Source of the DNA: Candidatus Saccharimonas aalborgensis
Lineage (GTDB): Bacteria > Patescibacteriota > Saccharimonadia > Saccharimonadales > Saccharimonadaceae
Assembly (NCBI RefSeq): GCF_000392435.1
Contig: NC_021219.1
Location: forward strand, 510,001-542,000
Direction: 5' to 3'
DNA length: 32,000 nucleotides
Below the pieces are notes generated by a model. That model did not search any database. It saw only the letters and a list, made by a program, of their open reading frames with translations, and was not told where the DNA came from. Positions within the stretch are counted from its first letter, which is position 1; each line of letters opens with the position of its first letter. Below, piece after piece: positions 16,283 to 32,000 of this stretch. The position numbers and the translations under genes were made by a program.

Positions 16283-17653
16283 CTACTTTTTCCTATACCA
16301 GGTGAAACCATCTTTTGTCAAACTTTCGCGACCCGCCATTGGTGCCCTTTCACAGAGTGAGGCAGAAGCAATTTTACTGTCGAACCCACTTATAGTCCCG
16401 ACGTAAATAAATGTATGACCACTTGAAATTGCAACATCACCCGGCTTTAGCGTGGCGGTATCGATAGACGAAGCGGTTCCGAGGTTTTGCCAGTGGGCGT
16501 CGAGCCAATTCTTTTGAGTATCGGTTGGACCAGCACCATCAGACAACTTCCCATTATAGTTATAACTTGTGTCCCAACCGCTATCGATAACGAGCCTTGT
16601 TACAAACGCCCCGCAATCAACAGCTACTCCATCAACCACATCTCCCCTCTTGGCACAAAAATCCACCGTTGCTCCAATATACATACCTATTTTTTGTGCC
16701 TTGTCAGCAGCAGTGGCATACTCTGGTTTGCGAGTGGTGTAGGGGGGTGTGTGATATTGGGGCCAAGCGTACGCGAGCGTTGCGGCAGAGAGATCACCGG
16801 GGGTAATAGGTGAGTCAGGAGAGCAGGTACCGGTTGACTGAGTAGTTGTACCTCCGGTTGTCGTACTTGCTCCTGCCGATGGAGTAGTTCCTTTGAGTTC
16901 GTCATATATTTTTTGACCATTATCGGCACGCTTTTGAGCATGAGCTGGACTTTGGTCCAATGGTCGTTCAAAGCTATAAAGCCAAACATCAGAGGCTGCC
17001 TTTATACTTGACGCCGCCTTGATAGAGTCCCACTCACTTGCGCCACTAACGCCATACCCAGAACGAACCGTTCGTGTCGTGCTTTCTTGGTAGAGAAAAT
17101 CGAGCTCAACGGCAAGAATCTTATCATTGTCCTCAACTGATATACCTTCGGGAACATACCCATTTGCTTTGGAGGTTGCTCCACCGTACTGTTTATTAAA
17201 ATACTTTGCCATAATGTCGGGGTATTTGGAGGTAAGTGCGTCGACAATCGCGGTTCTGCGCGGCCCCGTCCACTGAACGATCCCATAACCGCCCTTAGTA
17301 AAATCATTTATGTAAGTACCCTCTTGGCGAAATGGGCTAAAACCACTCTCTTGTTGAATATTTCCCAAAATACCGGCAGCCTGTTGGTCACTTAGGCCCT
17401 TTGAAATAAAGTAATTCCACATTTTTGCTACGTTACCACTACCGGAAACTTGGCTACCAGAGCTTGAGCTGCTACATGACGTGTTACCACCCTTTTGATA
17501 GATAAAAATGTTGTTTGTTGAGTAATCTGCCTCACTTAACGCCGAGACAGGTACACCAGAGACGGTGATAAGCAAACTAAGGAATAGTGTTCGAAGCCAA
17601 ACACCGGCGCGAAACAACACAGAGGTTTTAGTAGGGACTCTTTGGTAGTGCAT
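16283..17653 (-). CDS. Secreted two-domain cell-wall hydrolase (lysozyme-like N-domain plus NlpC/P60-like C-domain)
   Basis: N-terminal signal/anchor. AAGILGNIQQESGFSP...GGYGIVQWTGPRR resembles the phage-tail-lysozyme type muramidase family. The C-terminal VDCGAFVTRLV ... GDVAISSGHTFIYVG has the Cys/His spacing of NlpC/P60 peptidases. SD AGGAGG at 17665-17660. Confidence 0.75.
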   Translation of the reverse strand: MHYQRVPTKTSVLFRAGVWLRTLFLSLLITVSGVPVSALSEADYSTNNIFIYQKGGNTSCSSSSSGSQVSGSGNVAKMWNYFISKGLSDQQAAGILGNIQQESGFSPFRQEGTYINDFTKGGYGIVQWTGPRRTAIVDALTSKYPDIMAKYFNKQYGGATSKANGYVPEGISVEDNDKILAVELDFLYQESTTRTVRSGYGVSGASEWDSIKAASSIKAASDVWLYSFERPLDQSPAHAQKRADNGQKIYDELKGTTPSAGASTTTGGTTTQSTGTCSPDSPITPGDLSAATLAYAWPQYHTPPYTTRKPEYATAADKAQKIGMYIGATVDFCAKRGDVVDGVAVDCGAFVTRLVIDSGWDTSYNYNGKLSDGAGPTDTQKNWLDAHWQNLGTASSIDTATLKPGDVAISSGHTFIYVGTISGFDSKIASASLCERAPMAGRESLTKDGFTWYRKK

Positions 17654-18035
17654 CGAGCACCTCCTGTGGTATTTTTTTCCGTTGCTCAGAGGATAATTTA
17701 AACGGATTGTATGAAGTAAACCCTCTTTCGTTTGGCTGTTTATCCTCTAGGAGACGATATATCTCGTAGGGTTCATCGGGTTGACTAGATTTGTAGGTGA
17801 CGATATACCATCCGTTTTGAAATGGTTCGACAGACACAACCCTCCAATCCTCAAAACGCTCAGAAATAAAGGGCCTGAGTCCCTGCACAAACTCCGCGTC
17901 AGTATAGGGGGGGAGCTTACCTAAAATACTCTCACGATCTACAGCCGACTTTGAGGAAAAATATACTCCTACTAACACTGAAATTACAAGAATACACACC
18001 AAACCAGTCGCAATAATAACTACTCGTCGATTCAT
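17628..18035 (-). CDS. Small bitopic membrane protein (hypothetical)
   Basis: 135 aa with an N-terminal TM helix (VVIIATGLVCILVISVLVGVYF). Its ATG follows the upstream TAG stop directly (18038-18033). I recognise no family. Confidence 0.6.
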   Translation of the reverse strand: MNRRVVIIATGLVCILVISVLVGVYFSSKSAVDRESILGKLPPYTDAEFVQGLRPFISERFEDWRVVSVEPFQNGWYIVTYKSSQPDEPYEIYRLLEDKQPNERGFTSYNPFKLSSEQRKKIPQEVLDALPKSPY

Positions 18036-21000
18036 CTAGGTGCCTCTCCTAAAATCACTCAGTAGCGACGTTATATTTGTTGTTTTTACCGATGTCCAGC
18101 CGAGCGTGTTTGGATCAACCCACCCCTTGTAAGTTTGTCCCCAGTTATTCTCAACAAACGAAGCATCGCGCACATGGCCGTCATTGAGAACCTTGTTATT
18201 GCCAAGGTAGATGACGACATGTCCGCAACTACTTTTTGTGTAGAGGAGTATAGCGCCCTTTGGAGGGTTTCGATCAGTGTGCTGCTTGTCGGGGTTTTGA
18301 TTCCAAAGATCTATCGCACATGCGTAACCGTAGCGGGTTGCTGTTCCATGCCAGATATAGGATGTAACTCGCGCACATTGGCCAGCTCCCTCTAGGGTAT
18401 CTCCCACAGCCTGTTCACTCGCCATTGCGTTATAATAGACGTTGTCAAAACCGACCACTTGGCCATTATCGGTGAATTTTCCAGTACCAGCACCAATTGC
18501 AGTTGACGTGGACTGGCTCGTTGCCGCACTCGTAGTATCGGTTGCAAGCGGCTTAATGCCCGTCTCCATGCCGTCGACGACTGATTGGTCAATCAAATAT
18601 AACCTGAACATTTTCACCATTGTCGTGGCATTTTTTTGCTCATCATAGCATTCGGCAGGAAGTCGCTTCTCATCAGGCACAACTGTGCTGATTGCTTTTT
18701 CGTTTGCACCATCAATACATGTCTTCTTGAATGTATCAAACGCCGAACCAGCAACGGGATTACCGTCATTGTCGACATAGTTATTGTCTTTCATAAAGGT
18801 CGCTACAGACTCTGGCGAGGTGTTTTCTAGCATATTTACGTCATTGAAACCATAGATGACATTACAATAGGGGTCAGTAGCGAGACCCTTTTCTTTTACA
18901 TCAGGATCATCGCATTCATCCATTAACTTCTCCCTATCTGATATGTCTGCCATAGCGGTATCAAGTTGAACGCCGCCAGACCATGAAAAGAGCGACGTTG
19001 GCAAGTGACCGATAAGCTGTGGGTACTTAATAATATTGAACTTCGAAAAGAAATTACTGAGCGAGCTTGCGACTACACTTCCCGTAGAATAGGGGTTGTT
19101 AAAATCAAAGGTACCAGCAGCGGTGTTTTGATCTACAGAGTACTGAGCGATGTATGACTCGTTATAGCCGGCAAATGCAAGGTAACTTTTTCTGCTGAGT
19201 GGAGTGAGGGCCCGTGAAAGTGCGATACCGCCCGCAGCGGCACCCGCACCCATGGCGAGAGTATCAAAGGCAGCAACACCATTTTCCTCACCGGTAATGA
19301 CGGTGCCCGTGGCCAAGTGAGCAATATACGGAACGAAATATCGCTCGATGATGTAGCCAATGAGGAAAGATCCGACAAGTGAGGCGGCAAACTTGACAAG
19401 TTGCTTGCCCGCGTCTTTCAAGGTAGATTTGATGGCATCTTTGGCTAATTTTTCTGTAATTCTTTTGACGACCTGCTCGACGATCTTATTTATGAGTACC
19501 TTTGCACTCCCTCTTGCGGCAGCCATTGCGCCTTCTACTGCGACATTGCCCGTTCCTAGCGTTGTGATAGCAAGTATTACCTGGATAATAACCGATAAAA
19601 GAGCGGTCATGAATTGAAAGGCACCAGTAGTGGCAACATTACACATATCATTAAAACCGAGACTCTTCCCCGTTCCAGGCATTGTAAATGATAACTTATT
19701 CATGAAAAGAAGATACGCTACGAGAGCTGATAAAATGGCACCACCCGTAATGCCTGTTTGGATAGGCGTGTTAGTTGGCTTATCATACGCGCTCCAACTA
19801 TACGCAGTCGAATCCCCGAAATTATCTCCGTTTGCATCTGGTCTCTGCAGGATTTCCATCGGTATAGACACATCACTCGTTGCCGCATCCCCCGCCATTA
19901 CCATTTCGCCAGACGAAATAATTTGCGTTGCCCAACGCATTGCTACAGCGATACCCGCAAATTTAGCGAGATCAACAATAATCTTTGCATATTGATGCCC
20001 TTGGCACATCTCAGTAACAATTGCCGCAGGATTTAATGCACCGTTAATACCCTCCCATACCTTTGATCCAAGCTTTTTTTCGTAGGGTGCATGGTTCATT
20101 ATCTCTCCCATATCGCTTGGAGTACCTGCTGGATGACCATTTTCCAGGTCAGTCTTTAGGGTCTGTTTTTCTTCTTCTACGGCATCACTAAAGTCACCCC
20201 CATTTTGCCCCTGAGTGAGATCCTCGCCACCAGTTTCGGCTTCAGCTAGATTTTTTGATACTTCTTTGGCGCGAGTTTTTGGATCATCATCTTCACTTGT
20301 GGTTGTCCACTTCGGGTCACGTATAAGGCGCTTATCCTTGAAAAATGTGCTCGCAACCTTGTCTCGCCAGACGGCGGCCCGCGATGGATATACCCCCCGC
20401 ATAGTTTCTCTAAAGGTAGTATCGTTTGCAAGCTTGGTGCGAAAGTCTTTAGCACTAATTCGCTCCTGGACAAACTTACCATCATCCTTCATAGTCGATA
20501 ACCATTTCACACCAGAGTAACGCCCATCTTTATCTGGATTTACATAGTTACCATCCTTATCAATGAGTGAATAGCCAGCCTCATTTAATTTCCTTGCTTG
20601 ATCTTCACTCATAGAGCTATAGCGGCAAAACATCTTAATTCCCTGACTACACTTACCAGCCGTTGCGGTGTCGGTACCGCCAAAGATTCGGGATAGTAAT
20701 AAGCCATGAGAACGTGGCTCCTGTACCGAAGACATCGTGTCTACTTTGTCTTTTATGATCTGAACCGCATGCATAAGTCCCACGGGGCCGAGTGAAAAGA
20801 AGCCGCCTACACCCACAGCGCCAGCGAGAACGCCGAGAGGACCTTTCTTTTTGAGGAAATCAAAAACCTTTGCTTTTGTTGAGCCACCACCAGGCTTTGT
20901 GGGCTTGGTGACGTTATTGAGATAGTTGGCACTTGGGTTTTGCTCAGCAGCTCGGGCAATGTCAGTAGGATTATCTGCATTTGCAATAGCAGAGGAATTA

Positions 21001-21119
21001 CTCTCTGACTTCGTTGGTTCACCGTTAGATAATTGCTCTTTCTCTTTTAGGCTGCGAGCAGCAGGGCTAAAGTCATAGGCTTTATCAATTTCATCTTCAC
21101 GTTTTAGGGATGACGGCAT
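18036..21119 (-). CDS. Large polytopic membrane protein with a C-terminal CHAP-type peptidoglycan hydrolase domain
   Basis: 1027 aa with hydrophobic helices near residues 95-120 and about 455-640. The C-terminal GQCARVTSYIWHG ... SSCGHVVIYLGNNKVLNDGH matches the CHAP Cys/His pattern (GQC ... GHV). It sits directly downstream of virB4, as the hydrolase genes of monoderm T4SS loci do. Confidence 0.75.
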   Translation of the reverse strand: MPSSLKREDEIDKAYDFSPAARSLKEKEQLSNGEPTKSESNSSAIANADNPTDIARAAEQNPSANYLNNVTKPTKPGGGSTKAKVFDFLKKKGPLGVLAGAVGVGGFFSLGPVGLMHAVQIIKDKVDTMSSVQEPRSHGLLLSRIFGGTDTATAGKCSQGIKMFCRYSSMSEDQARKLNEAGYSLIDKDGNYVNPDKDGRYSGVKWLSTMKDDGKFVQERISAKDFRTKLANDTTFRETMRGVYPSRAAVWRDKVASTFFKDKRLIRDPKWTTTSEDDDPKTRAKEVSKNLAEAETGGEDLTQGQNGGDFSDAVEEEKQTLKTDLENGHPAGTPSDMGEIMNHAPYEKKLGSKVWEGINGALNPAAIVTEMCQGHQYAKIIVDLAKFAGIAVAMRWATQIISSGEMVMAGDAATSDVSIPMEILQRPDANGDNFGDSTAYSWSAYDKPTNTPIQTGITGGAILSALVAYLLFMNKLSFTMPGTGKSLGFNDMCNVATTGAFQFMTALLSVIIQVILAITTLGTGNVAVEGAMAAARGSAKVLINKIVEQVVKRITEKLAKDAIKSTLKDAGKQLVKFAASLVGSFLIGYIIERYFVPYIAHLATGTVITGEENGVAAFDTLAMGAGAAAGGIALSRALTPLSRKSYLAFAGYNESYIAQYSVDQNTAAGTFDFNNPYSTGSVVASSLSNFFSKFNIIKYPQLIGHLPTSLFSWSGGVQLDTAMADISDREKLMDECDDPDVKEKGLATDPYCNVIYGFNDVNMLENTSPESVATFMKDNNYVDNDGNPVAGSAFDTFKKTCIDGANEKAISTVVPDEKRLPAECYDEQKNATTMVKMFRLYLIDQSVVDGMETGIKPLATDTTSAATSQSTSTAIGAGTGKFTDNGQVVGFDNVYYNAMASEQAVGDTLEGAGQCARVTSYIWHGTATRYGYACAIDLWNQNPDKQHTDRNPPKGAILLYTKSSCGHVVIYLGNNKVLNDGHVRDASFVENNWGQTYKGWVDPNTLGWTSVKTTNITSLLSDFRRGT

Positions 21120-21145: not shown

Positions 21146-22981
21146 CTATTGATTCCCTATCGCGGTTTGTTGTTGCAAAAGTGCACCAGGATTTGTAGTA
21201 ATGAGTTTCTGCTCGGTCTGACTGGCAATAATCTGTATATGGACATGGTTTTGACCCGCAAAGAAGAGACCTTGACCTACTGGGAAGTTTGAGAGTCGTT
21301 TGCGTTCTTCATCTGTTAATTTAAATACATCAGATAGCACATCGACAGCGCTGGTCGACTGTTTGAGGAGGAGCTGGAGAGAAGAGTTGGCGACAATCGC
21401 ACGCCCCATTTTGCTTCCCATGAAGTCTTCGACATCCTGGGTGATTGTAGTGAGACCAAGATAGTATTTGCGAGCACGCTTGGCGAGGCTAAAGAGGAAA
21501 TTGGCTGAGTCGTCATATTTCATAAGCTGCCAGGCTTCATCGACGATGAGCATACGCTTTTTTTGGATCGTGCGGGTGATGTTCCAGATATGGCTCAGTA
21601 CGATATACATTGCGACCGGTCGCAACTCGTCCTCGAGATCACGAATATTGAACACAACCATACTGTTATTGATATCAATATTTGATTGCTGAGAGAATAT
21701 ACCAGCAAATGTTCCGCTGGTGTATTTGCGTAGGCGCTGAGCGAGCTGAGGTCCGGTGCCCCCCATATGAAGGAGTGTATCGTAGAGATCACCGATCGTT
21801 GGCGGGGTAGAGTTATGGGTTAGTGGGTCACTGGTGATACCGGCGCGTGCATAGGTATCGATTAACCCCTGATCCAAGTCAGCTTCTTCGGCAGGAGTAA
21901 GCATGCCGATCGCCTGTCCGTTCACCACCGAGCCACCAAGCATGAGCCTGAAGAGGCCGTGTAGTGTGACGAGGTTCGCTCGGAGGGCGTCATCTGCCTC
22001 GTCGGTATCAATTACTTTTGGCAGGTCAAACGGATTGACGCGCGTATCGCTATTGAGGCTAAGTCGTATATAACTGCCGCCAACGGCATCACATAACTTT
22101 TGGTACTCGTTTTCAGGGTCGATAATGAGAATGTCCGCCCCCATCATCATAGTGCGTATTGCCTCGAGTTTGACGGTAAATGACTTACCTGCTCCAGACT
22201 TTGCGAAGACGACCATATTGGCATTTTCGAGCGAGTAGCGGTCAAAGATGACGAGGCCATTATTGTGCATATTTACCCCGTAAAGGACGCCTTTTTCTTG
22301 TGTCAGATCGGCACTTGTAAATGGAAAACTGGTTGATATCGCGCCCGTATTCATATTGCGGCGAATTTGTAGTTGGTCGGACATTTGAGGAATGGTGCTA
22401 TTGAGGCCCTGTTCTTGTTGGCTACCAGCTACCTTACTGTAGACTAGTTGTTGACCAAATAACGTTTCGATATTGTGCTGGATAAACCCGAGTTCTTCGA
22501 GGCTGTCGGCATAGAGTGTGACATACAGTCCAAAGCGGAAAAAGCGTTCAGCGCCAACCTGTAGCTGATCGCGCAATTCTTCGGCATCATTTAGTGCCGC
22601 CTCGCGCCCAGGGTCGCGCGTAAGTCCCTTTTCGGCGTTGATAGACATATCGGCTTCGAGCTGCGTTACTTTCTTGCGAAGATTATTGAGGACTACCTGT
22701 GTATCAACCGGGTAAATAAACATACTTATATCGATTACTTGGTCGATATTTATGAGCGAACTGAGCCAGCCCGTGTATAGTTCGCGGGGGTATCCGTAGA
22801 CATACATCGTTCGACCATACTTCGTTCCGACACGGAAATAACCTGAGTGAATCTCGAGACTACTTGGGGCGATGAGGTCTCGAAGTGTGGTCATACCCTT
22901 GAGAAAGGCTTGTTCGACCTCTACCTGCTCTCGCTCGCGTTGTTGAGCAGCAATATCAATAGGATCAAGCTTCTTTGCCAC
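21146..22981 (-). CDS. virB4: VirB4-family T4SS ATPase (C-terminal two-thirds of a canonical monoderm VirB4)
   Basis: Walker A VFAKSGAGKSFTVK and Walker B KRMLIVDEAWQLM. LIAPSSLEIHSGYFRVGTKYGRTMYVYGYPRELYTGWLSSL matches the conserved mid-region of Tn916-Orf16/TcpF/ConE-type VirB4. GTG start at 22981. Confidence 0.9.
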   Translation of the reverse strand: MAKKLDPIDIAAQQREREQVEVEQAFLKGMTTLRDLIAPSSLEIHSGYFRVGTKYGRTMYVYGYPRELYTGWLSSLINIDQVIDISMFIYPVDTQVVLNNLRKKVTQLEADMSINAEKGLTRDPGREAALNDAEELRDQLQVGAERFFRFGLYVTLYADSLEELGFIQHNIETLFGQQLVYSKVAGSQQEQGLNSTIPQMSDQLQIRRNMNTGAISTSFPFTSADLTQEKGVLYGVNMHNNGLVIFDRYSLENANMVVFAKSGAGKSFTVKLEAIRTMMMGADILIIDPENEYQKLCDAVGGSYIRLSLNSDTRVNPFDLPKVIDTDEADDALRANLVTLHGLFRLMLGGSVVNGQAIGMLTPAEEADLDQGLIDTYARAGITSDPLTHNSTPPTIGDLYDTLLHMGGTGPQLAQRLRKYTSGTFAGIFSQQSNIDINNSMVVFNIRDLEDELRPVAMYIVLSHIWNITRTIQKKRMLIVDEAWQLMKYDDSANFLFSLAKRARKYYLGLTTITQDVEDFMGSKMGRAIVANSSLQLLLKQSTSAVDVLSDVFKLTDEERKRLSNFPVGQGLFFAGQNHVHIQIIASQTEQKLITTNPGALLQQQTAIGNQ

Positions 22982-23859
22982 TAGATGATCCCCCCTGTTT
23001 GGGTCGGTGTGGGGAGTGTGCCGCCCTTACGGACATACGTTGCAGTAACGTTAGTAAAGTCGCCGAGCGGCTCACGCACGGCAGTATCGGGGTTATATAC
23101 GTTATAATACAACTCACCTAATTCTTTGGTTTTGAGTTGAACTGCGGTTATCCCCACTTGCATGAGGCCATTGATAACCGCATCGACGCGATTTTTTATC
23201 TCATCCTTTGCTTTTTCGTAGGTTGCTTTGTCGATTTTTACTACAGAACTTGATTGATTGGCCGAGGGGATAATTTTTCCAAAGAACCCCTTGCCCTTTT
23301 CGACAACGTTGCTGAGATCTCCAGCGGGTGAGAACGGGACAATTACAAAAAAGCTTTTATCCATAATATTTGCCTCTTGTGCTAGCACATCGATAAATTG
23401 GACATAATCGTCCATGAGGACATTGAGGAGCATATTTTCCTGAGTGCGGCGAATTCCCTCTAGCTTATCGAGGTAGGGACCAATGTCGACGCGCTGTGAA
23501 CGGATAAATATTTGGATGGGAAAATACAGTGCATTGAGAAAGTTCTGATAACTAAACTCAACCCCCTCTCGTTCGCGCGAGCTCATGAGATCAAAATTAA
23601 TCGACTTACAGGCGATAACTGCCCGGAAACTTCCGTCGGCCATGATGATCATATTTTCACGAATCTCAGATAGTAGCAGACTATTCTGGGTGCTGACCGG
23701 ACGTTTTGGCTGCTGGCCAGGGGTTTTTTGATTTGACTGCGGAAGCTGTGGAGCAACTGGGGGCTGAAATTGTTGCTGAGAAGCATCAACAACACCAATA
23801 TTCGGTGCTGCTTGCTGGGGTTGAACTGGACTTTGTTGGTTGTTTGGTGGCACTCCCAC
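22981..23859 (-). CDS. VirB4 N-terminal-domain-like protein with a Pro/Gln-rich leader (separate ORF)
   Basis: IRENMIIMADGSFRAVIACKSINFDLMSSREREGVEFSYQNFLNALYFPIQIFIRS follows the pattern of the first domain of monoderm VirB4 proteins (DG..y..v.....iNf.L.s..E......F...L....iQ). Its stop overlaps the next start by 1 nt (TAGTG). Confidence 0.6.
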   Translation of the reverse strand: MGVPPNNQQSPVQPQQAAPNIGVVDASQQQFQPPVAPQLPQSNQKTPGQQPKRPVSTQNSLLLSEIRENMIIMADGSFRAVIACKSINFDLMSSREREGVEFSYQNFLNALYFPIQIFIRSQRVDIGPYLDKLEGIRRTQENMLLNVLMDDYVQFIDVLAQEANIMDKSFFVIVPFSPAGDLSNVVEKGKGFFGKIIPSANQSSSVVKIDKATYEKAKDEIKNRVDAVINGLMQVGITAVQLKTKELGELYYNVYNPDTAVREPLGDFTNVTATYVRKGGTLPTPTQTGGII

Positions 23860-23882: not shown

Positions 23883-24920
23883 CTAGTGCAGCGAGATGAC
23901 AACTTCTTGTTCGTCGTCACGCTTTTTCTTGCGACGTTCAGCCTCGTGAGCAATCGTCTCGATAGATAAATCGGTGTTATTTGCAAGATTAATTATATCA
24001 GGATCGACCCCGTTTCCGCTAGTGGTTGGAGTAGTATTTGTTTCGGGATTTACTATAGGAACTTGCGGCTGAACTGGTACCTGAGGCGGTACGGTTGGAG
24101 GCGGAGGTGACTGGGCGACGAGGGGCTGGATAACACTTTGATGAATATTAGAGGGATAAGGACTTGCCTGGTGGAGAGCCGCCAGATCACTCGCCGTTAC
24201 GGCTGCTGCCTGCGCAGGAGCAATTGTCAATGAGGCGTATGGGTCAGCGACGGGTGGGGTCGGGGGTGACACCTGTGTTTGCACAGAAGGTGTTACTTGT
24301 GTGGCTACATTTGAAGGCACAGTTTGAGGCGCGCGCATATGTTCGACAACTTCTTGACGACGACGAGCGTCGGACTGAGAGATCATAGTATCAATCGACT
24401 GCGCGATACCTCCTTGAGTATCCATGATATCGACAGTTTGCTGCGCCTCAAGAAACACATCGCTCACCATATTGCTGCCACTACCAGGTGTTGCCGCATG
24501 ACGAATGGCCCACCCCTCAGTATCAGCAATATTCGCGAGGTACGAGAGCCGACGTTCTGCTTCTGTCTGCGATAGGTCCTTGGTGCGCTGGACCTCAACA
24601 ACCTTTGGTGCAGTAATCTCTACGAGTGATTCTATACCATCGGGTATCCAGAGGCGTCTGCGCGGCTTGAGATAGTACGACAACAGTGCTGCCATGTATA
24701 TCTCCATCGGCTGGTCTTTGCGCAGTGGCAAAGCAAGTGCACCAAAAAAGACGATGATCGGTAGCGGAATAATCGCCAGAGGGACAAATAATTGCGCGAG
24801 TCCCCAGGCGAGGGTAATACTTATAGCAACAATGATGAGGTAGATAAATTGGCGAAAACTAAAGGGACCAATGAGTTTATCGTCTGCTTCAACATCTTGA
24901 GCTACTTTATAGACGGCCAT
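23883..24920 (-). CDS. PrgI/VirB3-like membrane protein with a long C-terminal extension
   Basis: N-terminus MAVYKVAQDVEADDKLIGPFSFRQFIYLII followed by two TM helices, the PrgI-family (VirB3 analogue) pattern, directly upstream of virB4. At 345 aa it has a Pro/Gln/Val-rich tail, versus roughly 120 aa in the PrgI-type proteins I recall. Confidence 0.65.
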   Translation of the reverse strand: MAVYKVAQDVEADDKLIGPFSFRQFIYLIIVAISITLAWGLAQLFVPLAIIPLPIIVFFGALALPLRKDQPMEIYMAALLSYYLKPRRRLWIPDGIESLVEITAPKVVEVQRTKDLSQTEAERRLSYLANIADTEGWAIRHAATPGSGSNMVSDVFLEAQQTVDIMDTQGGIAQSIDTMISQSDARRRQEVVEHMRAPQTVPSNVATQVTPSVQTQVSPPTPPVADPYASLTIAPAQAAAVTASDLAALHQASPYPSNIHQSVIQPLVAQSPPPPTVPPQVPVQPQVPIVNPETNTTPTTSGNGVDPDIINLANNTDLSIETIAHEAERRKKKRDDEQEVVISLH

Positions 24921-24928
24921 ACAAACTC

Positions 24929-27900
24929 CTACGGTGTGCCACCACTACCTGGCGTATTTCTATCAGCTAAACCGTCTCTAATCTGGTCAGCATGAGCTCT
25001 AATCTGTTCTGATTCGTAATCACTCAAGAATCTTCCACCTACTTTACCGACAGAACCGTCTTTTGTGACTGACTGCTGTCCGGCAACATGGCGGGCCTTA
25101 CCATCAGCACCAACGTTAACTAAATCTCCTATATCAGAGTAGCCACCTGATCCGCTTGAGCTACTTGTTGCTGACGACGTTGCACTTGAGGGGACTGCAG
25201 GAGCAGGATTTGCAGGAGCAACTTTAGCACCGAGACTGGCATGGGGGATATTGAGTACGCCCGGGGTACCTACTGCAGCTCCGCCGGCTGCACCACTCGC
25301 TGGGGGTGCGCTAGGGCCAGGACTTGCGCCGCCTCCTGATGGAGGTGGGGGTGGTGCTTGATTTGGCATCGGCATTTGGCCAGCACCACTCCCAGAAGTC
25401 CCCGTAGCAGCCGCTGCCGCTCCGGCAGGGGTACTTGGGCCGTTCGTCCCTGCTACACCGCGCAGAACATTTCTTTTATTCTCATTAAGATTTTGCCAAA
25501 CATTGGGATTGTCCATCATACCCTGTGCTCGTGCTGCATCCAATCCCCCCGAGCTAACAGCAGCTTTAAGCTGGACTTCACTCTGACCCGCAAGCTCAGC
25601 ATCCGTAAGTCCGGAGTAGGTACCCGCAGCACCGTCAAAACTCGACAGCGTGCCCGACGAGTAGCTCCATGAGTTCACGGCGGCATCACGACTCTTTACA
25701 CCAGCCGCACTAAGGTCAGACATCAACTTTTGGACCGTTGTACTGCCTTTATCAAAGCCCTTTTTACCTTCAGCGTTCACAATGCCCTTATGGAGATTAT
25801 CCATTCCCTTCGCACCGCCCGCCAACAATATTGACTGGGCAGCCCTCGCACGTACGGTGTCTCCTTCGGCAATAGCTTTTTCATATACTTTTTGGGCCTC
25901 GTCTAGTTTTTGCTCTTCTTTCCATCCTTTTTGCATCCGTATCGCCTCATCGGCAACTTCCTTTTTCTCCATCTCGGCCGCCACACCGGCACCATGGGCT
26001 GAGAGTTTGCCACCATAATTCTTGCCAGTGAGTCTGTTGATACCCTTATAATATTTCGCACCCAGACCGTTCCCATGCCCACCGAGCGTCTGAGCTCGTT
26101 TGAGTTGTTGGTTACGCTGACGCTGCTGGCTCATAGCGCCAAGCATAGAGGTGTCGTTCCATTTCTTGCCAATGCGGCTATTTGCCTTGGAGCTGGCTTT
26201 GCTGAGCATAGCACCTACTGATCCGGCGGCTGCCAGTGCATTTTTGAGGAGAGGCAGGACAATGAGAAGCGGAATGGCAGAGACACCGAGCGCTCCAACT
26301 CCCAGCGCTGTTTTCGTGGCAGTCGCGTTTGCATCAGTCCCACTAACACCGTTTGCGGCAGCAGATAGTATCGTTGAGGCTAATTTGCTCGCGCCAAACA
26401 CTAACGCTACGATAGGAAATAGCAGGAGAAGTGTAGAAAATAACTTGTACCATTTTTTGAACAAATTCTCAGTATTCGGCAGTAGGTATGCGACAAATGC
26501 GAGCGGCGAGATGACGATGAGTAGTATGATAAGCGCTTGCCGACCAATGAGTATCAATACGGTCAAAGCAAGGGCGAGGAGTGCCGCGAGTACGACTGGG
26601 GTAGATACAGACAGGAGTAATGCGATTGCCGCAACTCCAAGACCAGTCATCCCCAGGATACCGCCGATCGTGTCGAGCCACTTATTCGATGAGGACGCTG
26701 CCGCTGCGGCTCCCGGGTCGGTTACGGTGACCGACAGTAGACTACTGAGGCTATATCCCAGCATATTACTGATATCGACAGCCAACTGGCATACATAATA
26801 CGAGACGTTGACAAGGATTGCCGCCACGATGAGCTTAGGAAGCATCTTCTTTATACCATAGTTTGTTATACCAATGCTCGATATCTGTGAGAATATGATA
26901 ATCAAAAAGGCAAGGACGAACGCTGCGTTTGCATAGTTGCGGAATTGCTGCCATGCAGTAAAGGTACCCCCGTTTTGGTCAGTTACCTCCTTGTTGACTA
27001 CGAGTGCCATACTAATGTAATTTTGTGCACCATCATTGACGGTTGCCATGAAATTCATTATGGGGCAGACGAGCCAGCCAATACTCTTGATGACACAAGT
27101 GGGTTTTGAGCCATTTGTGCTCCCGGCAGCATTTGGGTCTGATGCGTATTTTTGTCCATACTTACATGCGGTGTTCTCTGCGGCTTTTGTTGCGGGTGGA
27201 TAAGTGGTATCACAAAAAGCAGGGTCAGATTTATTTTTTAGTCCGTCTTCACACGCGGTCCTTTCTGCCTGAGATAACTTATACTTACTCGCACAGGTTT
27301 GAGCGGCGGTCGGGTCATTCTGGACGTAGGTAAGGTAATTGTTAGCATATTTGTCGGCGAGATTTGAAAGCGATTCACAGTTTTGCTGACCGCCCCCTTC
27401 GTTATCTATTTCACTTGAGTTTGATCCTGATATTGGAGCAAGAACAGGGATCTGCTTTCCTCTACCCAATTCAGTTCTATAGAATTTTTCAATTAGCTGG
27501 GTATTGTCATCACTTGGAGCGTGGATGATATAGCCAGTATCGCCCTTTTCCATTGTAGCTGGGTCGTATGTAGCCTCATTGGTCACCTTACAGGCAGTTT
27601 TAAATGACTTAATGAAATAGTTATACTTAACATACCCCTCTGGCGTAAATGGATTGGCGCCCACCTTTTGTTTAATGGTGTTAAAGAAATCGCGCTCATG
27701 CCCCTGTATTATCCAGTCACCATCGCCAGTTCTGCAGTCACTATTGTTCTCGCGTTTTACCCCGATATCGCAAATAAATTCTTTTCCAGATGTCCAGCCG
27801 AGAAATCCAAGTGCTTCTCTCATCTTTGATCCATCATTGCAGTTTCTCTCCCCACCCGGGTCAATGAATGTTCCGATTTGCGTGTCTTTTGATCTAAAAA

Positions 27901-28108
27901 AAACAAAATCATTAACACTCGAATCAGCCTTACCGCTCGCATAAGCAAGACACGAATAGACGTAACTGGCATATGCCCAGGCTTTACCCTTATCGTCTAT
28001 AGAGCTGCTTGTGTATGAAAGTGCAAAAAGTGAGGGGGCGGTGAGTATAGGAGTAAATAGGGTTATAATAACCCCTCCCAGTACAGTAAACAATCCAAAT
28101 CGTTTCAT
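24929..28108 (-). CDS. Giant VirB6/TrbL-like polytopic membrane protein, paralogue 1
   Basis: 1059 aa. It has a signal peptide and an N-terminal ectodomain of about 340 aa with 12 Cys. The multi-TM core contains RQALIILLIVISPLAFVAYLLPNTENLFKKWYKLFSTLLLLFPI (a TrbL/VirB6-like loop-helix pattern). The C-terminal tail of about 400 aa ends in a Pro/Ala/Gly/Ser low-complexity segment (about 25140-25460). Confidence 0.7.
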   Translation of the reverse strand: MKRFGLFTVLGGVIITLFTPILTAPSLFALSYTSSSIDDKGKAWAYASYVYSCLAYASGKADSSVNDFVFFRSKDTQIGTFIDPGGERNCNDGSKMREALGFLGWTSGKEFICDIGVKRENNSDCRTGDGDWIIQGHERDFFNTIKQKVGANPFTPEGYVKYNYFIKSFKTACKVTNEATYDPATMEKGDTGYIIHAPSDDNTQLIEKFYRTELGRGKQIPVLAPISGSNSSEIDNEGGGQQNCESLSNLADKYANNYLTYVQNDPTAAQTCASKYKLSQAERTACEDGLKNKSDPAFCDTTYPPATKAAENTACKYGQKYASDPNAAGSTNGSKPTCVIKSIGWLVCPIMNFMATVNDGAQNYISMALVVNKEVTDQNGGTFTAWQQFRNYANAAFVLAFLIIIFSQISSIGITNYGIKKMLPKLIVAAILVNVSYYVCQLAVDISNMLGYSLSSLLSVTVTDPGAAAAASSSNKWLDTIGGILGMTGLGVAAIALLLSVSTPVVLAALLALALTVLILIGRQALIILLIVISPLAFVAYLLPNTENLFKKWYKLFSTLLLLFPIVALVFGASKLASTILSAAANGVSGTDANATATKTALGVGALGVSAIPLLIVLPLLKNALAAAGSVGAMLSKASSKANSRIGKKWNDTSMLGAMSQQRQRNQQLKRAQTLGGHGNGLGAKYYKGINRLTGKNYGGKLSAHGAGVAAEMEKKEVADEAIRMQKGWKEEQKLDEAQKVYEKAIAEGDTVRARAAQSILLAGGAKGMDNLHKGIVNAEGKKGFDKGSTTVQKLMSDLSAAGVKSRDAAVNSWSYSSGTLSSFDGAAGTYSGLTDAELAGQSEVQLKAAVSSGGLDAARAQGMMDNPNVWQNLNENKRNVLRGVAGTNGPSTPAGAAAAATGTSGSGAGQMPMPNQAPPPPPSGGGASPGPSAPPASGAAGGAAVGTPGVLNIPHASLGAKVAPANPAPAVPSSATSSATSSSSGSGGYSDIGDLVNVGADGKARHVAGQQSVTKDGSVGKVGGRFLSDYESEQIRAHADQIRDGLADRNTPGSGGTP

Positions 28109-28156
28109 AGTGCCTATGATTATTTAATCATGTCTAGTATAAAAATACTATTGAAT

Positions 28157-28186
28157 CAAAAGTCCCCTTGATTAAGAGGACTTTTG
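28157..28186 (-). terminator. Hairpin downstream of the lipoprotein gene (possible terminator or processing site)
   Basis: CAAAAGTCC (28157-28165) pairs with GGACTTTTG (28178-28186), a 9-bp stem with a 12-nt loop. The U-run is inside the 3' arm rather than a separate tail, so termination efficiency is uncertain. Confidence 0.4.
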
Positions 28187-28210
28187 ACATGTATGACGAT
28201 AAGAACCTAA

Positions 28211-29092
28211 CTAACTGGGGGTATTGGGAAGTTTTTTAAATCCACTATTACCTTCGGGGGTTGTAGAATATAGCGTCCACTCAAATCCCTCTCCTCCACC
28301 GACTTTAGGAAATGATGTACCAATGACTTGCCATTGACTAACTGTGGTATCACCCTTGGCATTCAGGGTCTTCCGCCACTCATTAGCCGTATTATTAAAA
28401 CTAGATGATTCCTCTCCCCATGCTGTGCTGTACAAATACTCATCACTGCCACTACGGTCTTTGATATTACCACTGAAGTCTAACATTGCTTGCTTGGCGC
28501 GCAAGTATTCTTGAGAATCACAGGAAGAGTATACGATAGCGAGCATTCTTATTGCATCAAGTCGGTTCTCGGGGCGAACCGTGCCGTCGGGATTAGTGAG
28601 GATATGCCACGCTGTTGCCTCTTTATTGACCTTTTGAACAATAATCGATTGCGCATCGGAGCTACTTGAAGGGTTACCATAATTCGCAAACGGTACAAAT
28701 TTTTCACTAGTTAGTCTCATTAATTTAATTTGTTGCTCCGCATAGGGGCCATAAACACGAAACAGAAACTCGCCATAACGTTCTCGTTGCGGTCCTTTCA
28801 GATTCTCAAATGGTGAGATATCGTCGCTAGCATGGATATCTTTAATGAACTTCTGATCCTCTGCTGAGAGCGCTTTGTAGGCTTCGCTGTCAATTATTGT
28901 TTTTGGATTGAGCTTATCAACTGTCTGAGTAGTTTTCTCGGGGGTGCTCGCACCAGGCGTCTGTGAGGCGCTGGCGGTTGGGCGGTTGTCAGCCGAAACG
29001 GTTTCTGGACCACACGCAGTTGTGCCGAGGGCGACAGTGGTCGCAAGAGCGAAGCCAGCGCCGAGTCGTTCAAAAGTAGATCGTTTTACCAT
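28211..29092 (-). CDS. Lipoprotein (hypothetical) embedded between the two VirB6-like genes
   Basis: I chose the start at ATG 29092 (MVKRSTFERLGAGFALATTVALGTTAC). This gives a lipobox-type signal ending in Cys, followed by a Thr/Ser/Pro linker. SD AAGGAG at 29110-29105. The track start at 29146 lies inside the promoter. Confidence 0.75.
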   Translation of the reverse strand: MVKRSTFERLGAGFALATTVALGTTACGPETVSADNRPTASASQTPGASTPEKTTQTVDKLNPKTIIDSEAYKALSAEDQKFIKDIHASDDISPFENLKGPQRERYGEFLFRVYGPYAEQQIKLMRLTSEKFVPFANYGNPSSSSDAQSIIVQKVNKEATAWHILTNPDGTVRPENRLDAIRMLAIVYSSCDSQEYLRAKQAMLDFSGNIKDRSGSDEYLYSTAWGEESSSFNNTANEWRKTLNAKGDTTVSQWQVIGTSFPKVGGGEGFEWTLYSTTPEGNSGFKKLPNTPS

Positions 29093-29134
29093 GATAATGA
29101 GTTTCTCCTTATTGAAATTATCACGAATGTATAC

Positions 29135-29163
29135 ATTATACACCAAAGGTATGAAAATGTCAA
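29135..29163 (-). promoter_or_regulatory. Consensus sigma-70-type promoter for the lipoprotein gene
   Basis: On the minus strand: TTGACA (29163-29158), an exact 17-nt spacer, then TATAAT (29140-29135). It starts 22 nt after the upstream gene's stop and lies about 40 nt before the ATG at 29092. Confidence 0.65.
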
Positions 29164-29184
29164 TATACCATAAGCATCGGTGTG

Positions 29185-32000
29185 CTAAATGACGATACCG
29201 GCATCGCGCAGTGCTTTTGCCATGACCTCGCGAGACGACTCTGGTGTGTCGCGACCAACCGTCGGACTGGTGAGGATATCGCGCGTACCATTGAGCATAC
29301 CCGCAAAGTTCTTGTCGAACTTGTCGTCGAAGGTAGAGACAACTTTTTGGTAGCGCGGATCACTGGTACCACCATACATCCCCTCGAAGAGCTCAAACAT
29401 TGCGCTGCGGTGCCGGGCAAACTCGGCTTGGTCGGCGGGGTCAGCACTCCGCTTGAGTGAGCCAAGCTTGTACAAGATATCAAGTGCTTCAAAGTTGGCA
29501 CCTGCCAAGTTATCGGTCTTGATACGGCCCTCAAAGATCTGGCGCATCGCGTGCATATTTGTACTATCAATACCATTGAAGTTACCTTTGACAATTTCGT
29601 TGAAAGTAACGTCATTGATAAATGGTGCAAGGCGTTGGATGCCCGAACCGATCGCCTCACTCTTGACCGAGAGTCGATGGGCGTAGTTGACACCCTTGCG
29701 GTAGACAACATTGCCGGAGCTATCAAGTTTGACACTGCCGTCGGGGTTGGTGTCGACAACCTTTGACCCAGTTTCGTTGAGGATGGCCATCTTTTGAGCG
29801 TACGAGCCCTCTTTGAATTGGGTAACGATCGCCGCCTCTTTGACATATTCGTCACCAGCATCAAATTCGTGAACGTTGCCACTGTCGTCGACGGCCCGAA
29901 TAACTGTCCCCTTACCCTTTGCCGCAAGTGATTGGTATTGGCCGCTTTCGAGTTTAAAGTGTTTCATCAATTCACCAGCCGCAGCGGCTTGCTTGCCCCA
30001 CTCACTGCGTCCTTCAGAAATTGCACCAGCCAGGACATTGTCTTTGTGACCAATTCCGGTCGCATACTCATTGAGTGACCTGCCGTCAATAGCGCGGACC
30101 TGACCGCTAAAGATTGGCTTACCGTCAGCATCGCGGCGAATCACGCCGTGCTCGTCGCGCTGGTGGACTTGGCCATTGCTGAGTAGTTCGTCATTGATTT
30201 GGTTCTTGAGTCGGTGTTCGGCCTGAGATTTTCGGATAGCGGTGAGAGAGATTCCCTCGGCTGTCTCAAAGGCAGTGGCTGCGAGTTGCTGCATCGCAGG
30301 GGTGGCAATAGGTGCGTGGCCCACGCGCAGCTCATCGTAGGCCGCTTCAATTTGTTCGCCGGCAAGTTTGGCCCGATCGCCCGCCAAGCGGACACTCAGT
30401 TCCTTTTCAAGCTCTGATGCGTCTGTTTTTATCTTGACGTGCCAGTTTTCGTCCAAACTATGCTGGATACGCTGTTTATCCCGTTCAGTTTGGCGAGTGG
30501 CGGTATCAATGCGTCGACCTTCCATCGAGTCGTTAAAGAGGTTGTCATAGGTAGATTCGTTTACTTTTTTCCATGCTTCACGACGACGACGGTTATAGTT
30601 GACGTTACGTGTGGTACGATTTGCCCAGTTGTTACGACCCTTGCCGGCGAGTACGCGGGCTTTTTCTTGCTCGGCCCGCTCCTTTGCCCAGTTGCGAGTA
30701 CGATCCATAATGCCAGCTTTTGGATTATTGACCATACCGGCAATGCGCCCAAGGAGTGATCCGCTAAACTTAATGAGCATTGGTGTAATAGCAACCGGTG
30801 CTATCTGAACGGCCATACCGAGGATAATGAGGTTAAATGAGTCGGCGTTTTGTATGATGGCCATGCCGGCAAGTTGTGAGCCACCAAATATGACGGCAAA
30901 TATCGGGAACATCAGGAGCATTGTAGTGAGTAGCTCGCGCCATTTTGTGAAGTATTTTTCGGTATTTGGGAGGATGTAGGCGACAAATGCTAGCGGTGAG
31001 ACGATGATGAGAACAGTGATGAGTGCCTGTCGAGCTGCCATTACCAGGAGTGCGACGAGAACAGCCATCAATATCCCAACCAGGATCGGTATCAAGAGGT
31101 AGAGGGCGCCAGGGAGTGAACCGCCGAGGACGACAAACTTAGCGTAGAGTCCCAAGGCAGTGACCGCTGTTCCTCCTGAGAGGACAGCACTTGCAACACT
31201 TGACCAGCTGAGTGCAGTGATGTTGCCATAGTTTTCGGTAGTGCTCATGGCGTTGAAAATACCAAGGAACATATCGTGAATCGCATAGCCAAGATAATTT
31301 GAAACGTCTACTGCCAGTGCGCAGATCCAGTATGAGATGTTTACGAGAACGGCGGTGATAATGAGGCGAGGCAACATTTTTTTGATACCGTAGTTGCTGA
31401 TACCGACATTTGATATCTGAGAGTAAATAACAACCAGAAATGCGACGACGAAGAGAGCGTTGGCGATATCTCGTACGATTACCCACATCCTGTAGAGAGA
31501 GTTAGTAGTCGAGGTTTGGACTGGGCGGACGGTGAGAAATGACGACAACGCGTTATAGAGGTGGTCCATGCCGCTTGCTAAGAAATTGACGATCGGACAG
31601 ATAAACCAACCCAGGCCATTAGTGACTGATCCACTACAGGTGCTGGGGGTGGGAGAACTGGTGTTGTTTGTAATGCCGTTGACGATAGCAACGGCGACAG
31701 GTGGTGAAGGATTGCTATACTGGCCAGAATTGAAATCATACACAATGTACTGTGCGCTCGTTGCCTTGGTGGGATCTTGAGCTGTGTCAATGATAATCGC
31801 CTCACGTTTGTTGGTTTGAGGATTTTGGAATTCAAAGACGTGCGTTCCGACCGGTAATTGGCGGCTATCACCAGCTTGAATATCGGCAGTTTGGGTGAAA
31901 CTGCCGTTATTGTAGGTGATGGTGTTTCCGTTACGGACCGCATCGGCGGCGCTAACAGGGGCACTAAGCAAGAGATTGCAGGAAAAAACAGCCACAAGGA
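29185..32000 (-). CDS. Giant VirB6/TrbL-like polytopic membrane protein, paralogue 2; N-terminus runs off the window
   Basis: More than 936 aa. Its core aligns with paralogue 1: GWFICPIVNFLASG vs GWLVCPIMNFMATV; ISNYGIKKMLPRLIITAVLVNISYWICALAVDVSNYLGY vs ITNYGIKKMLPKLIVAAILVNVSYYVCQLAVDISNMLGY; RQALITVLIIVSPLAFVAYILPNTEKYFTKW vs RQALIILLIVISPLAFVAYLLPNTENLFKKW. The visible N-terminus ...VAVFSCNLLLSAPVSA/ADAV looks like the end of a signal peptide. The C-terminal domain is non-membrane and about 490 aa. Confidence 0.7.
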   Translation of the reverse strand, partial: LVAVFSCNLLLSAPVSAADAVRNGNTITYNNGSFTQTADIQAGDSRQLPVGTHVFEFQNPQTNKREAIIIDTAQDPTKATSAQYIVYDFNSGQYSNPSPPVAVAIVNGITNNTSSPTPSTCSGSVTNGLGWFICPIVNFLASGMDHLYNALSSFLTVRPVQTSTTNSLYRMWVIVRDIANALFVVAFLVVIYSQISNVGISNYGIKKMLPRLIITAVLVNISYWICALAVDVSNYLGYAIHDMFLGIFNAMSTTENYGNITALSWSSVASAVLSGGTAVTALGLYAKFVVLGGSLPGALYLLIPILVGILMAVLVALLVMAARQALITVLIIVSPLAFVAYILPNTEKYFTKWRELLTTMLLMFPIFAVIFGGSQLAGMAIIQNADSFNLIILGMAVQIAPVAITPMLIKFSGSLLGRIAGMVNNPKAGIMDRTRNWAKERAEQEKARVLAGKGRNNWANRTTRNVNYNRRRREAWKKVNESTYDNLFNDSMEGRRIDTATRQTERDKQRIQHSLDENWHVKIKTDASELEKELSVRLAGDRAKLAGEQIEAAYDELRVGHAPIATPAMQQLAATAFETAEGISLTAIRKSQAEHRLKNQINDELLSNGQVHQRDEHGVIRRDADGKPIFSGQVRAIDGRSLNEYATGIGHKDNVLAGAISEGRSEWGKQAAAAGELMKHFKLESGQYQSLAAKGKGTVIRAVDDSGNVHEFDAGDEYVKEAAIVTQFKEGSYAQKMAILNETGSKVVDTNPDGSVKLDSSGNVVYRKGVNYAHRLSVKSEAIGSGIQRLAPFINDVTFNEIVKGNFNGIDSTNMHAMRQIFEGRIKTDNLAGANFEALDILYKLGSLKRSADPADQAEFARHRSAMFELFEGMYGGTSDPRYQKVVSTFDDKFDKNFAGMLNGTRDILTSPTVGRDTPESSREVMAKALRDAGIVI

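Follow-up and report, generated by a model that had tools for sequence, protein, structure and literature searches.

Two large minus-strand genes of Candidatus Saccharimonas aalborgensis, lying near the end of a 32,000-nt stretch of contig NC_021219.1 (positions 510,001 to 542,000), very probably encode extended VirB6 subunits of a chromosomal, origin-proximal, monoderm-type Saccharibacteria type IV secretion system (T4SS); Saccharibacteria are very small and live on other bacteria. We call this whole stretch the window and give coordinates as positions within it; the two proteins are paralogue 1 (p1, B-type) and paralogue 2 (p2, A-type), and their domains are listed with the neighboring genes in Table 1. 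Each begins with a signal peptide, continues into an N-terminal domain predicted to be extracytoplasmic and a core with the VirB6 fold, made up of some five long hydrophobic helices, and ends in a helical C-terminal domain that the two proteins share. A gene pair of this kind has already been catalogued in Southlakia epibionticum and in Nanosynbacter lyticus (TM7x)—p1 and p2 are its Saccharimonas counterpart.

Both are real genes, since they have hundreds to thousands of homologues and show nonsynonymous to synonymous substitution ratios (dN/dS) of 0.03-0.13 between close strains. A first, sequence-only reading of the window had proposed two large paralogues with a homologous polytopic core, and BLASTP bears this out, with 35% identity over 418 amino acids (aa; E 7e-65), all within the hydrophobic core. 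By hydropathy and in AlphaFold 2 (AF2) models, the core is polytopic with at least five long hydrophobic helices, one of them 46-49 residues in length and resembling the long helices of TrwI, the VirB6 protein of R388. The mean predicted local distance difference test (pLDDT) score is 69 for the p1 model and 81 for the p2 model, the latter built on the 936-aa form present in the window, and the core is modeled with high confidence in both. Both proteins join at least five hydrophobic helices to large hydrophilic domains, which is how extended VirB6 proteins are defined; this is a recognized class in which the role of the extensions is not understood (PMC12857230).

The assignment of the cores to the VirB6/TrbL family is supported by several lines of sequence and model evidence—no single line is strong, but all of them agree. 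The Pfam TrbL model (PF04610) matches p1 at residues 418-611 (E 0.0094), scoring 16.2 bits with the full-length protein and 22.3 bits with the core alone, and a precomputed TrbL_3 match (PF19590) is recorded for p2. In a family-wide Pfam scan run on an alignment of 75 cores, TrbL was the sole recurrent family among the seven found, with matches at E <= 0.01 in 18 cores, and three relatives score above the TrbL cut-off (P0026 at 37.0, P0049 at 26.7, and P0112 at 26.4 bits). Foldseek places R388 TrwI/VirB6 (8rtd_L) as the top PDB fold match of both AF2 models, at probability 0.99, E 0.061-0.075, and a target-normalized TM-score of 0.41-0.42; several further TrwI chains stand in the top 13. TrwI was likewise the only match when a core profile was compared with PDB sequences, where HMMER aligned the p1 core motif SPLAFVAYLLPNTE..F.KW to TrwI GPLFILALIWQPTHRFFDQW, and matches among the viral models of BFVD include proteins named TrbL or VirB6. 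The genes are encoded alongside VirB4, VirB3, and VirB2 homologues, a linkage that is kept across species.

Several results weigh against this assignment. Neither p1 nor p2 reaches the Pfam TrbL gathering score of 25.9 bits, and p2 has no match in the Pfam copy scanned; the fold match to TrwI is weak in absolute terms, with Foldseek E values of only 0.06-0.075; the core profile matched TrwI at E = 3, and a profile of the full A-type alignment gave chance-level matches alone against PDB sequences. For the ectodomains and for the tail domain, whole-chain Foldseek searches also returned no PDB fold match; probabilities for nuclear receptors and karyopherins stayed below 0.2, and we discounted these matches as noise from helical structure.

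The predicted topology of both proteins has the ectodomain outside and the tail inside, as the sequence-only reading had it for the Cys-rich domain and the basic tail of p2. In the AF2 models a signal peptide is followed in each protein by five long membrane helices, an odd number that would place the C-terminus in the cytoplasm. Lys/Arg residues are present in all three of the loops predicted to lie inside, a strongly basic segment follows the last helix, and neither tail contains a Cys. Agrobacterium VirB6 reportedly has this same orientation, with the N-terminus outside and the C-terminus in the cytoplasm, in work by Jakubowski et al. from 2004. Two published observations call for caution: in R388 VirB6, just two hydrophobic helices actually span the membrane (PMC9259494), which makes helix counting unsafe, and the C-terminal domain of ConG, from the integrative and conjugative element (ICE) ICEBs1, is predicted to be extracellular (bioRxiv 10.1101/2021.01.25.428195).

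Everything outside the core had been thought to differ between the paralogues. This holds for the N-terminal ectodomains, which show no detectable homology in hhalign (13% probability), but not for the tails—tail alignments of the B-type and the A-type match over 197 columns at a probability of 96.2% (E 2.2e-9), joining residues ~688-887 of p1 to ~665-956 of p2. Since the tails are homologous, the extension predates the duplication that gave rise to the pair.

The ectodomain of p1 spans ~310 aa and is modeled by AF2 at a pLDDT of ~80-90 over residues 30-260. Its richness in Cys was described correctly from the outset: residues 31-350 hold 12 of the 13 Cys of the protein (53, 90, 113, 125, 173, 244, 272, 286, 299, 315, 338, and 348; binomial P 5e-6). 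The domain has no sequence match in the PDB and none in Pfam or NCBIfam, and a search of 1.84 billion representative proteins found only 22 relatives, almost always N-terminal in proteins of ~900-1100 aa; identity outside the genus is at most 32%. At the other end of p1, the ~420-aa tail closes with a disordered stretch (residues 890-1028, pLDDT <40) and a helix at 1030-1049 in the AF2 model. The 138 disordered residues include 26 Ala, 26 Gly, 20 Ser, and 19 Pro, and the sequences ...APPPPPSGGGASPGPSAPPASG... and SSATSSATSSSS are present in the tail as first quoted; this C-terminus seems specific to the Saccharimonas group. The G+C content at 24929-26000 is ~52-53%, against ~45% for the whole window, and this richer part coincides with the Ala/Gly/Pro-rich disordered tail. 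A 215-aa open reading frame (ORF) at 26151-26798, which runs antisense to the p1 core and linker, is probably spurious.

The part of p2 that lies in the window is an ORF of 936 aa (29185-31995); on public contigs that carry an identical p1 the full gene encodes 962 aa, and the 26 residues missing from the window form the start of the signal peptide. In agreement with the sequence-only reading, the ectodomain is short (~100-150 aa) and the tail long (~528 aa), with a Lys/Arg-rich start. Between the core and the globular C-terminal domain, AF2 predicts a series of linker helices at residues 429-449, 457-488, 491-524, 526-557, and 566-605. The Cys pair C120/C133 of the core is invariant in 120 family members. 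There are at least 5258 homologues of p2, many of them full-length at ~40% identity, and the p2-type C-terminal domain is conserved over its full length in thousands of them.

The distribution of the two types was surveyed in 81 loci—80 species loci from a scan of Saccharibacteria genomes, together with the window locus. Two copies are present in 24 loci and one copy in 57, and a profile search adds one weak match; the A-type is found in all 81 loci and the B-type in 24. In a neighbor-joining tree of the cores, the types form pure clades (81/81 A-type and 22/23 B-type), and the duplication must therefore be old: the paralogues arose by an ancient duplication inside Saccharibacteria.

The usual gene order is A-type, a variable gene of ~300 aa, B-type, and then PrgI-TrsD-VirB4. 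Wherever a tandem locus has downstream flank, PrgI-TrsD-VirB4 follows the pair, and the B-type adjoins PrgI except in L053 and L068, in which it precedes the A-type. Just upstream of the A-type, 54 of 69 loci carry five to seven divergent pilin genes, and of the 38 single-copy loci whose downstream flank reaches 8 kb or more, 37 lack a PrgI, TrsD, or VirB4 gene after the A-type. The A-type is thus genetically tied to the VirB2-like pilin array, and the B-type to PrgI-TrsD-VirB4. B-type ectodomains range from 160 to 370 aa and mostly contain 6-10 Cys besides a conserved pair at the core boundary; 12-20 of 21 B-type proteins share the Cys columns at p1 positions 53, 90, 113, 125, 173, 244, and 315. 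B-type tails elsewhere are shorter than that of p1, mostly 258-345 aa.

Some loci depart from these arrangements. At L088 (1-9898), a B-type allele identical to P0004 and the intervening gene are preceded by genes for ribosome recycling factor, a prenyltransferase, and an M50 peptidase in place of the A-type and the pilins, which is either a rearrangement or a misassembly. In 15 loci (L043, L046, L048, L049, L057, L065, L070, L071, L074, L075, L078, L079, L082, L083, and L084), for example in Microsaccharimonas, the A-type stands alone, with no detectable pilins or PrgI/TrsD/VirB4 in the available flank of up to 10 kb. A large group of closely related metagenome-assembled genomes, L008-L050, differs in what comes after the A-type and pilins: genes for ribonucleotide reductase and an ABC-2 transporter rather than VirB4 (e.g. 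L031, 6988-21276); from this gene order, the T4SS genes are split across the genome there.

We compared the window strain (L001) with two close relatives, L085 and L087. The p2 proteins are 98.5-99.5% identical, with synonymous divergence (dS) of 0.07-0.22 and dN/dS of 0.03-0.04; the p1 proteins are 82-88% identical, with dS of 0.5-1.0 and dN/dS of ~0.12. Within p1, identity is 89% for the ectodomain (dS 0.45-0.62, dN/dS 0.09-0.13), 81-89% for the core (dS 0.70 and dN/dS 0.10 in the one comparison that could be computed, the other being saturated), and 65-83% for the tail domain (dS 0.92 and dN/dS 0.12, again with one comparison saturated). The most variable part of p1 is therefore its tail domain, and the ectodomain varies no more than the core. 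A hypervariable ectodomain is rejected by these values—neither its identity nor its dN/dS of ~0.1 shows any excess over core or tail—and the comparison of ectodomain with core across strains that the sequence-only reading had suggested thus went against its expectation. High dS (0.5-1.0) is found in the B-type, TrsD, VirB4, and 1027-aa genes, and low dS (0.02-0.22) in the A-type, 311-aa, and PrgI genes. From this mosaic we infer recombination between lineages rather than diversifying selection on a surface antigen, and the pattern suggests recombination tracts within the T4SS cluster.

The paralogues lie in one apparent operon with short intergenic gaps. They are not strictly adjacent, as the gene for the 311-aa protein, which the sequence-only reading had missed, stands between them. 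This cluster is the origin-proximal, monoderm-type T4SS that has been described for Patescibacteria (PMC12102498): dnaA, dnaN, and recF are encoded within the same window, and five or six T4SS_pilin genes, divergent from p2, lie beyond the window end. Pfam and NCBIfam scans found no VirB9, VirB10, or VirB11 in the cluster, and there is no relaxase or integrase among the scanned ORFs of the window and its flanks. An ICE or plasmid origin is unlikely, as the cluster adjoins dnaA-dnaN-recF and sits likewise in another genus.

Table 1. Positions in the window of the two extended VirB6-like proteins, their domains, and neighboring genes.
Feature	Position	Strand	Basis
p1, B-type extended VirB6-like protein, 1059 aa	24929-28108	-	ORF; TrbL match below threshold; TrwI/VirB6 top fold match; B clade in core tree
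p1 signal peptide or N-terminal anchor, aa 1-30	28019-28108	-	N-terminal Lys/Arg, then hydrophobic stretch
p1 Cys-rich ectodomain (predicted), aa 31-340	27089-28018	-	Cys count and conservation; AF2
p1 VirB6-like polytopic core, aa 341-640	26189-27088	-	Hydropathy; AF2 helices; 35% identity to p2 core
p1 helical tail domain (predicted cytoplasmic), aa ~700-890	25439-26011	-	AF2 pLDDT ~95, all-helical; hhalign to p2 C-terminal domain
p1 disordered Ala/Gly/Ser/Pro-rich C-terminus and short terminal helix, aa 891-1059	24929-25438	-	AF2; composition
p2, A-type extended VirB6-like protein, 962 aa in full	29185 to beyond 32000	-	ORF; TrbL_3; TrwI/VirB6 top fold match
p2 small beta-rich ectodomain (predicted), window-numbered aa 18-119	31639-31944	-	AF2 strands over 19-106, pLDDT 55-85
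p2 VirB6-like core, window-numbered aa 120-424	30724-31638	-	BLASTP to p1; hydropathy; AF2
p2 long-helix, coiled-coil-like linker, aa 425-605	30181-30723	-	AF2 helices; Lys/Arg-rich start
p2 conserved C-terminal globular domain, aa 606-936	29185-30180	-	pLDDT ~97; family-wide conservation; hhalign to p1 tail
Intervening 311-aa lipobox protein, likely start 29092	28211-29146	-	ORF; positional counterpart of SEML1_0012
PrgI/VirB3-like protein, directly downstream of p1	23883-24920	-	Pfam PrgI, E 7.5e-10
TrsD/TraC-like protein, VirB4 N-domain-like	22981-23859	-	NCBIfam TrsD, E 1e-4; precomputed PF26593 TraC-like
VirB4 ATPase, monoderm CD1110 type	21146-22981	-	NCBIfam conju_CD1110, 380 bits vs cut-off 325
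Cell-wall hydrolase genes (1027-aa, 135-aa, 456-aa)	16283-21119	-	Pfam; order as SEML1_0007, SEML1_0006

A signal resembling a lipobox (…ALGTTAC|GPE) and a Pro/Thr/Ser linker are found in the 311-aa protein between the paralogues. In 20 tandem loci this position is occupied by proteins of 280-380 aa with a signal or lipobox or a membrane anchor; their mean identity is ~17%, and weak pairwise matches join them. A PDB profile search for a VirB8/NTF2-like identity of the 311-aa protein gave signal-peptide and low-complexity matches alone, and it is as a counterpart of the NTF2-like/VirB8-like SEML1_0012 by gene position only that we list it. Further along the cluster, VirB4 looks split: the 292-aa TrsD/TraC-like ORF overlaps the 611-aa ATPase ORF by one base, and the match of the latter to the CD1110 VirB4 model is limited to positions 167-733. 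The 1027-aa gene product is a membrane protein with a weak NlpC/P60 match in Pfam, and the 456-aa product (16283-17653, minus strand) matches phage-tail lysozyme; in a close strain (L087, 20483-22474) this lysozyme gene encodes 663 aa, with an extra Amidase_3 domain. Elsewhere in the window (2715-4638, plus strand), genes resembling succinyl-CoA ligase beta and alpha lie amid glycosyltransferase and UDP-GlcNAc 2-epimerase genes.

The closest described system is that of S. epibionticum, where the T4SS is essential for epibiotic growth (Wang et al. 2023, Cell, PMC10633639); before the Saccharibacteria T4SS, none had been reported as essential to its own carrier (PMC10633639, PMC12857230). The gene order there is dnaA-dnaN-recF, two small genes, lysozyme, large hydrolase, VirB4, TrsD-like, and PrgI, followed by proteins of ~1000 aa, ~280 aa, and ~1090 aa (the last TrbL/VirB6), divergent pilins, Hsp20, and PRTase, and it is matched in Saccharimonas. 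Table S2 of that study lists SEML1_0010 as PrgI; SEML1_0011 as a ~998-aa protein with 'Type IV secretion system protein' as best structural match and an ARM-repeat-like region at 746-995; SEML1_0012 as a ~278-aa NTF2-like protein matched to the VirB8-like TraM fold; SEML1_0013 as a ~1088-aa TrbL/VirB6 protein with an ARM-repeat-like region at 806-1085; and SEML1_0014 to SEML1_0019 as pilins (PMC10633639). The ARM-repeat-like C-terminal domain assigned by DPAM to both large proteins agrees with the tail shared by p1 and p2. Transposon sequencing scores are ES/ES/ES for SEML1_0011, NE/ES/ES for SEML1_0013, and NE for SEML1_0012, and SEML1_0011 and SEML1_0013 are not discussed there as a pair (PMC10633639). 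By position, p2 corresponds to SEML1_0013 and p1 to SEML1_0011; what tells against this correspondence, and through it against our reading of the pair, is that it is drawn from gene order, lengths, and domain calls rather than from sequence, between different genera and between proteins of unequal length (998 and 1088 aa vs 1059 and 962 aa). In TM7x, two adjacent predicted virB6 genes, TM7x_00055 and TM7x_00060, lie in a T4SS region with pilin-like genes; the difference is that a predicted virB8 lies beside the virB6 pair there rather than between its members.

Among systems outside Saccharibacteria, R388 TrwI/VirB6 (PDB 7O3V, 8RT9, 8RTD), the best structural match of both cores, has the long hydrophobic helices and a Pro...Trp motif in common with them; however, TrwI is only 342 aa long, lacks a signal-peptide-led ectodomain and a large C-terminal domain, and works in a diderm system with VirB5 and VirB7-11. 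TrwI/VirB6 is a pentameric stalk base and the site of pilin assembly (Mace et al. 2022, PMC9259494), a role that fits the link between the A-type and pilin genes. ConG of ICEBs1 is alike in joining a VirB6-like polytopic region to a large hydrophilic C-terminal domain, with PrgI/VirB3-like, VirB4, and hydrolase genes alongside. TcpH of Clostridium plasmid pCW3 is a further extended VirB6 of a monoderm conjugation system. Systems of the ConG type differ in having a single copy and no pilins, and in a C-terminal domain predicted to lie outside, whereas the p1 and p2 tails are predicted to lie inside; p1 and p2 gave no NCBIfam (E <= 0.1) or Pfam match to the VirB6 families of monoderm conjugation. 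In a published survey, most Patescibacteria VirB6 proteins were recovered by the MPF_T VirB6 profile, and the PrgH profile recovered 12/480. Finally, the RvhB6a-e proteins of Rickettsiales are likewise duplicated and enlarged (674-1154 aa) around a TrbL core, in host-dependent bacteria with reduced genomes (Gillespie et al. 2009, PMC2653234). This parallel, drawn in the sequence-only reading, is one of analogy only: there are five copies there vs two here with a gene between them, in a diderm P-type system vs a monoderm-type one with CD1110-type VirB4, PrgI, and TrsD. The resemblance is convergent, since the duplication of p1 and p2 is internal to Saccharibacteria.

By analogy with R388 (PMC9259494), the cores would oligomerize in the membrane to form the base of a stalk, recruit pilins, template pilus growth, and form part of the translocation path. 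The basic, Cys-free tails would be cytoplasmic, where the shared helical domain may—more tentatively—dock onto VirB4/TrsD or receive substrates; in S. epibionticum, the type IV coupling protein homologue of the Saccharibacteria T4SS is neither linked to the cluster nor essential (PMC12102498). The differing ectodomains might take the position held by VirB5 in diderm systems, building the wall-spanning or pilus-proximal part or contacting the host, and disulfides might stabilize that of the B-type. Both paralogues would be needed and hence not redundant; they could form a mixed assembly or perform separate steps. A host-binding role for the Cys-rich domain is speculation. Bolder still, and improbable taken as a whole, is a scheme in which the shared C-terminal domain, held on its long-helix arm beside VirB4, would be a substrate receptor or ATPase dock that replaces a dispensable VirD4-type coupling protein in an essential, non-conjugative T4SS, and in which the unrelated ectodomains would be combined in a mixed stalk, with the disulfide-scaffolded B-type in a VirB5-like place (pilus base or tip) contacting the host.

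The paralogues may instead be alternative stalk subunits used at different stages of the life cycle, host encounter and stable attachment, rather than parts of one assembly. In TM7x, TM7x_00055 is higher at initial encounter and TM7x_00060 in stable symbiosis (bioRxiv 10.1101/2022.03.25.485537), and most A-only loci with enough flank have the A-type beside pilins and away from VirB4. These expression data come from another species and from a preprint, both genes are scored essential in S. epibionticum co-culture, and p1 and p2 share an apparent operon, so we consider separate stages unlikely, if well worth keeping in view. The position of the tails can also be questioned: the linker and the C-terminal globular domain could be extracellular, forming a wall-spanning stalk that displays the conserved domain at the surface. 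ConG is predicted to have just such a large extracellular C-terminal region, the ~175 residues of long helices in p2 could span a cell wall, and some hydrophobic helices of a VirB6 protein may not be transmembrane. This arrangement is rather doubtful given the strongly basic segment after the last hydrophobic helix, the Lys/Arg of the three predicted inside loops, the lack of Cys in the tails against 12 of 13 in the p1 ectodomain region, and the odd count of membrane helices after the signal peptide in the AF2 models.

Similar caution applies to the view that the Cys-rich domain is a host-recognition adhesin under diversifying selection, with p1 mainly setting host range. In its favor are the predicted extracytoplasmic position of the domain, its restriction to the B-type, its low identity outside the genus, and the greater divergence of close strains in p1 than in p2; yet the domain has a low dN/dS, its variability does not exceed that of core or tail, and its Cys scaffold is conserved. 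High dS is common to VirB4, TrsD, and the 1027-aa gene, which points to recombination rather than positive selection, and searches of Pfam, Foldseek, and PDB profiles found no adhesin-like fold or domain. An adhesin of this kind is decidedly improbable. It is scarcely credible that the cores instead serve as permeases in a transporter of another kind (such as ABC-2) and merely lie beside T4SS genes, even though the Southlakia tables give KEGG K01992 for SEML1_0011 and SEML1_0013 and, from ProtNLM, a weak suggestion of 'ABC transporter permease' (0.575) for the latter. The permease reading is rejected by the Pfam results, with no ABC-2 family on p1 or p2 or among the seven families found over the 75 cores; VirB6 gives the top structural matches, and across species the genes stay linked to pilins, PrgI, and VirB4. 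The profile and structure searches placed the cores in no unrelated transporter family, so the original suggestion that the cores are VirB6/TrbL-like stands.

As extended VirB6 proteins, p1 and p2 represent the largest membrane parts of the Saccharibacteria T4SS. To what is already catalogued for this pair, we add that its members belong to two old orthologous groups and share a conserved, probably cytoplasmic domain; that the A-type usually lies by the pilins, and the B-type, with its conserved Cys scaffold, by PrgI/VirB4; and that, between close strains, the ectodomain does not behave as a rapidly evolving antigen. The domain boundaries given here can be used for deletion and swap work in the genetically tractable S. 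epibionticum.

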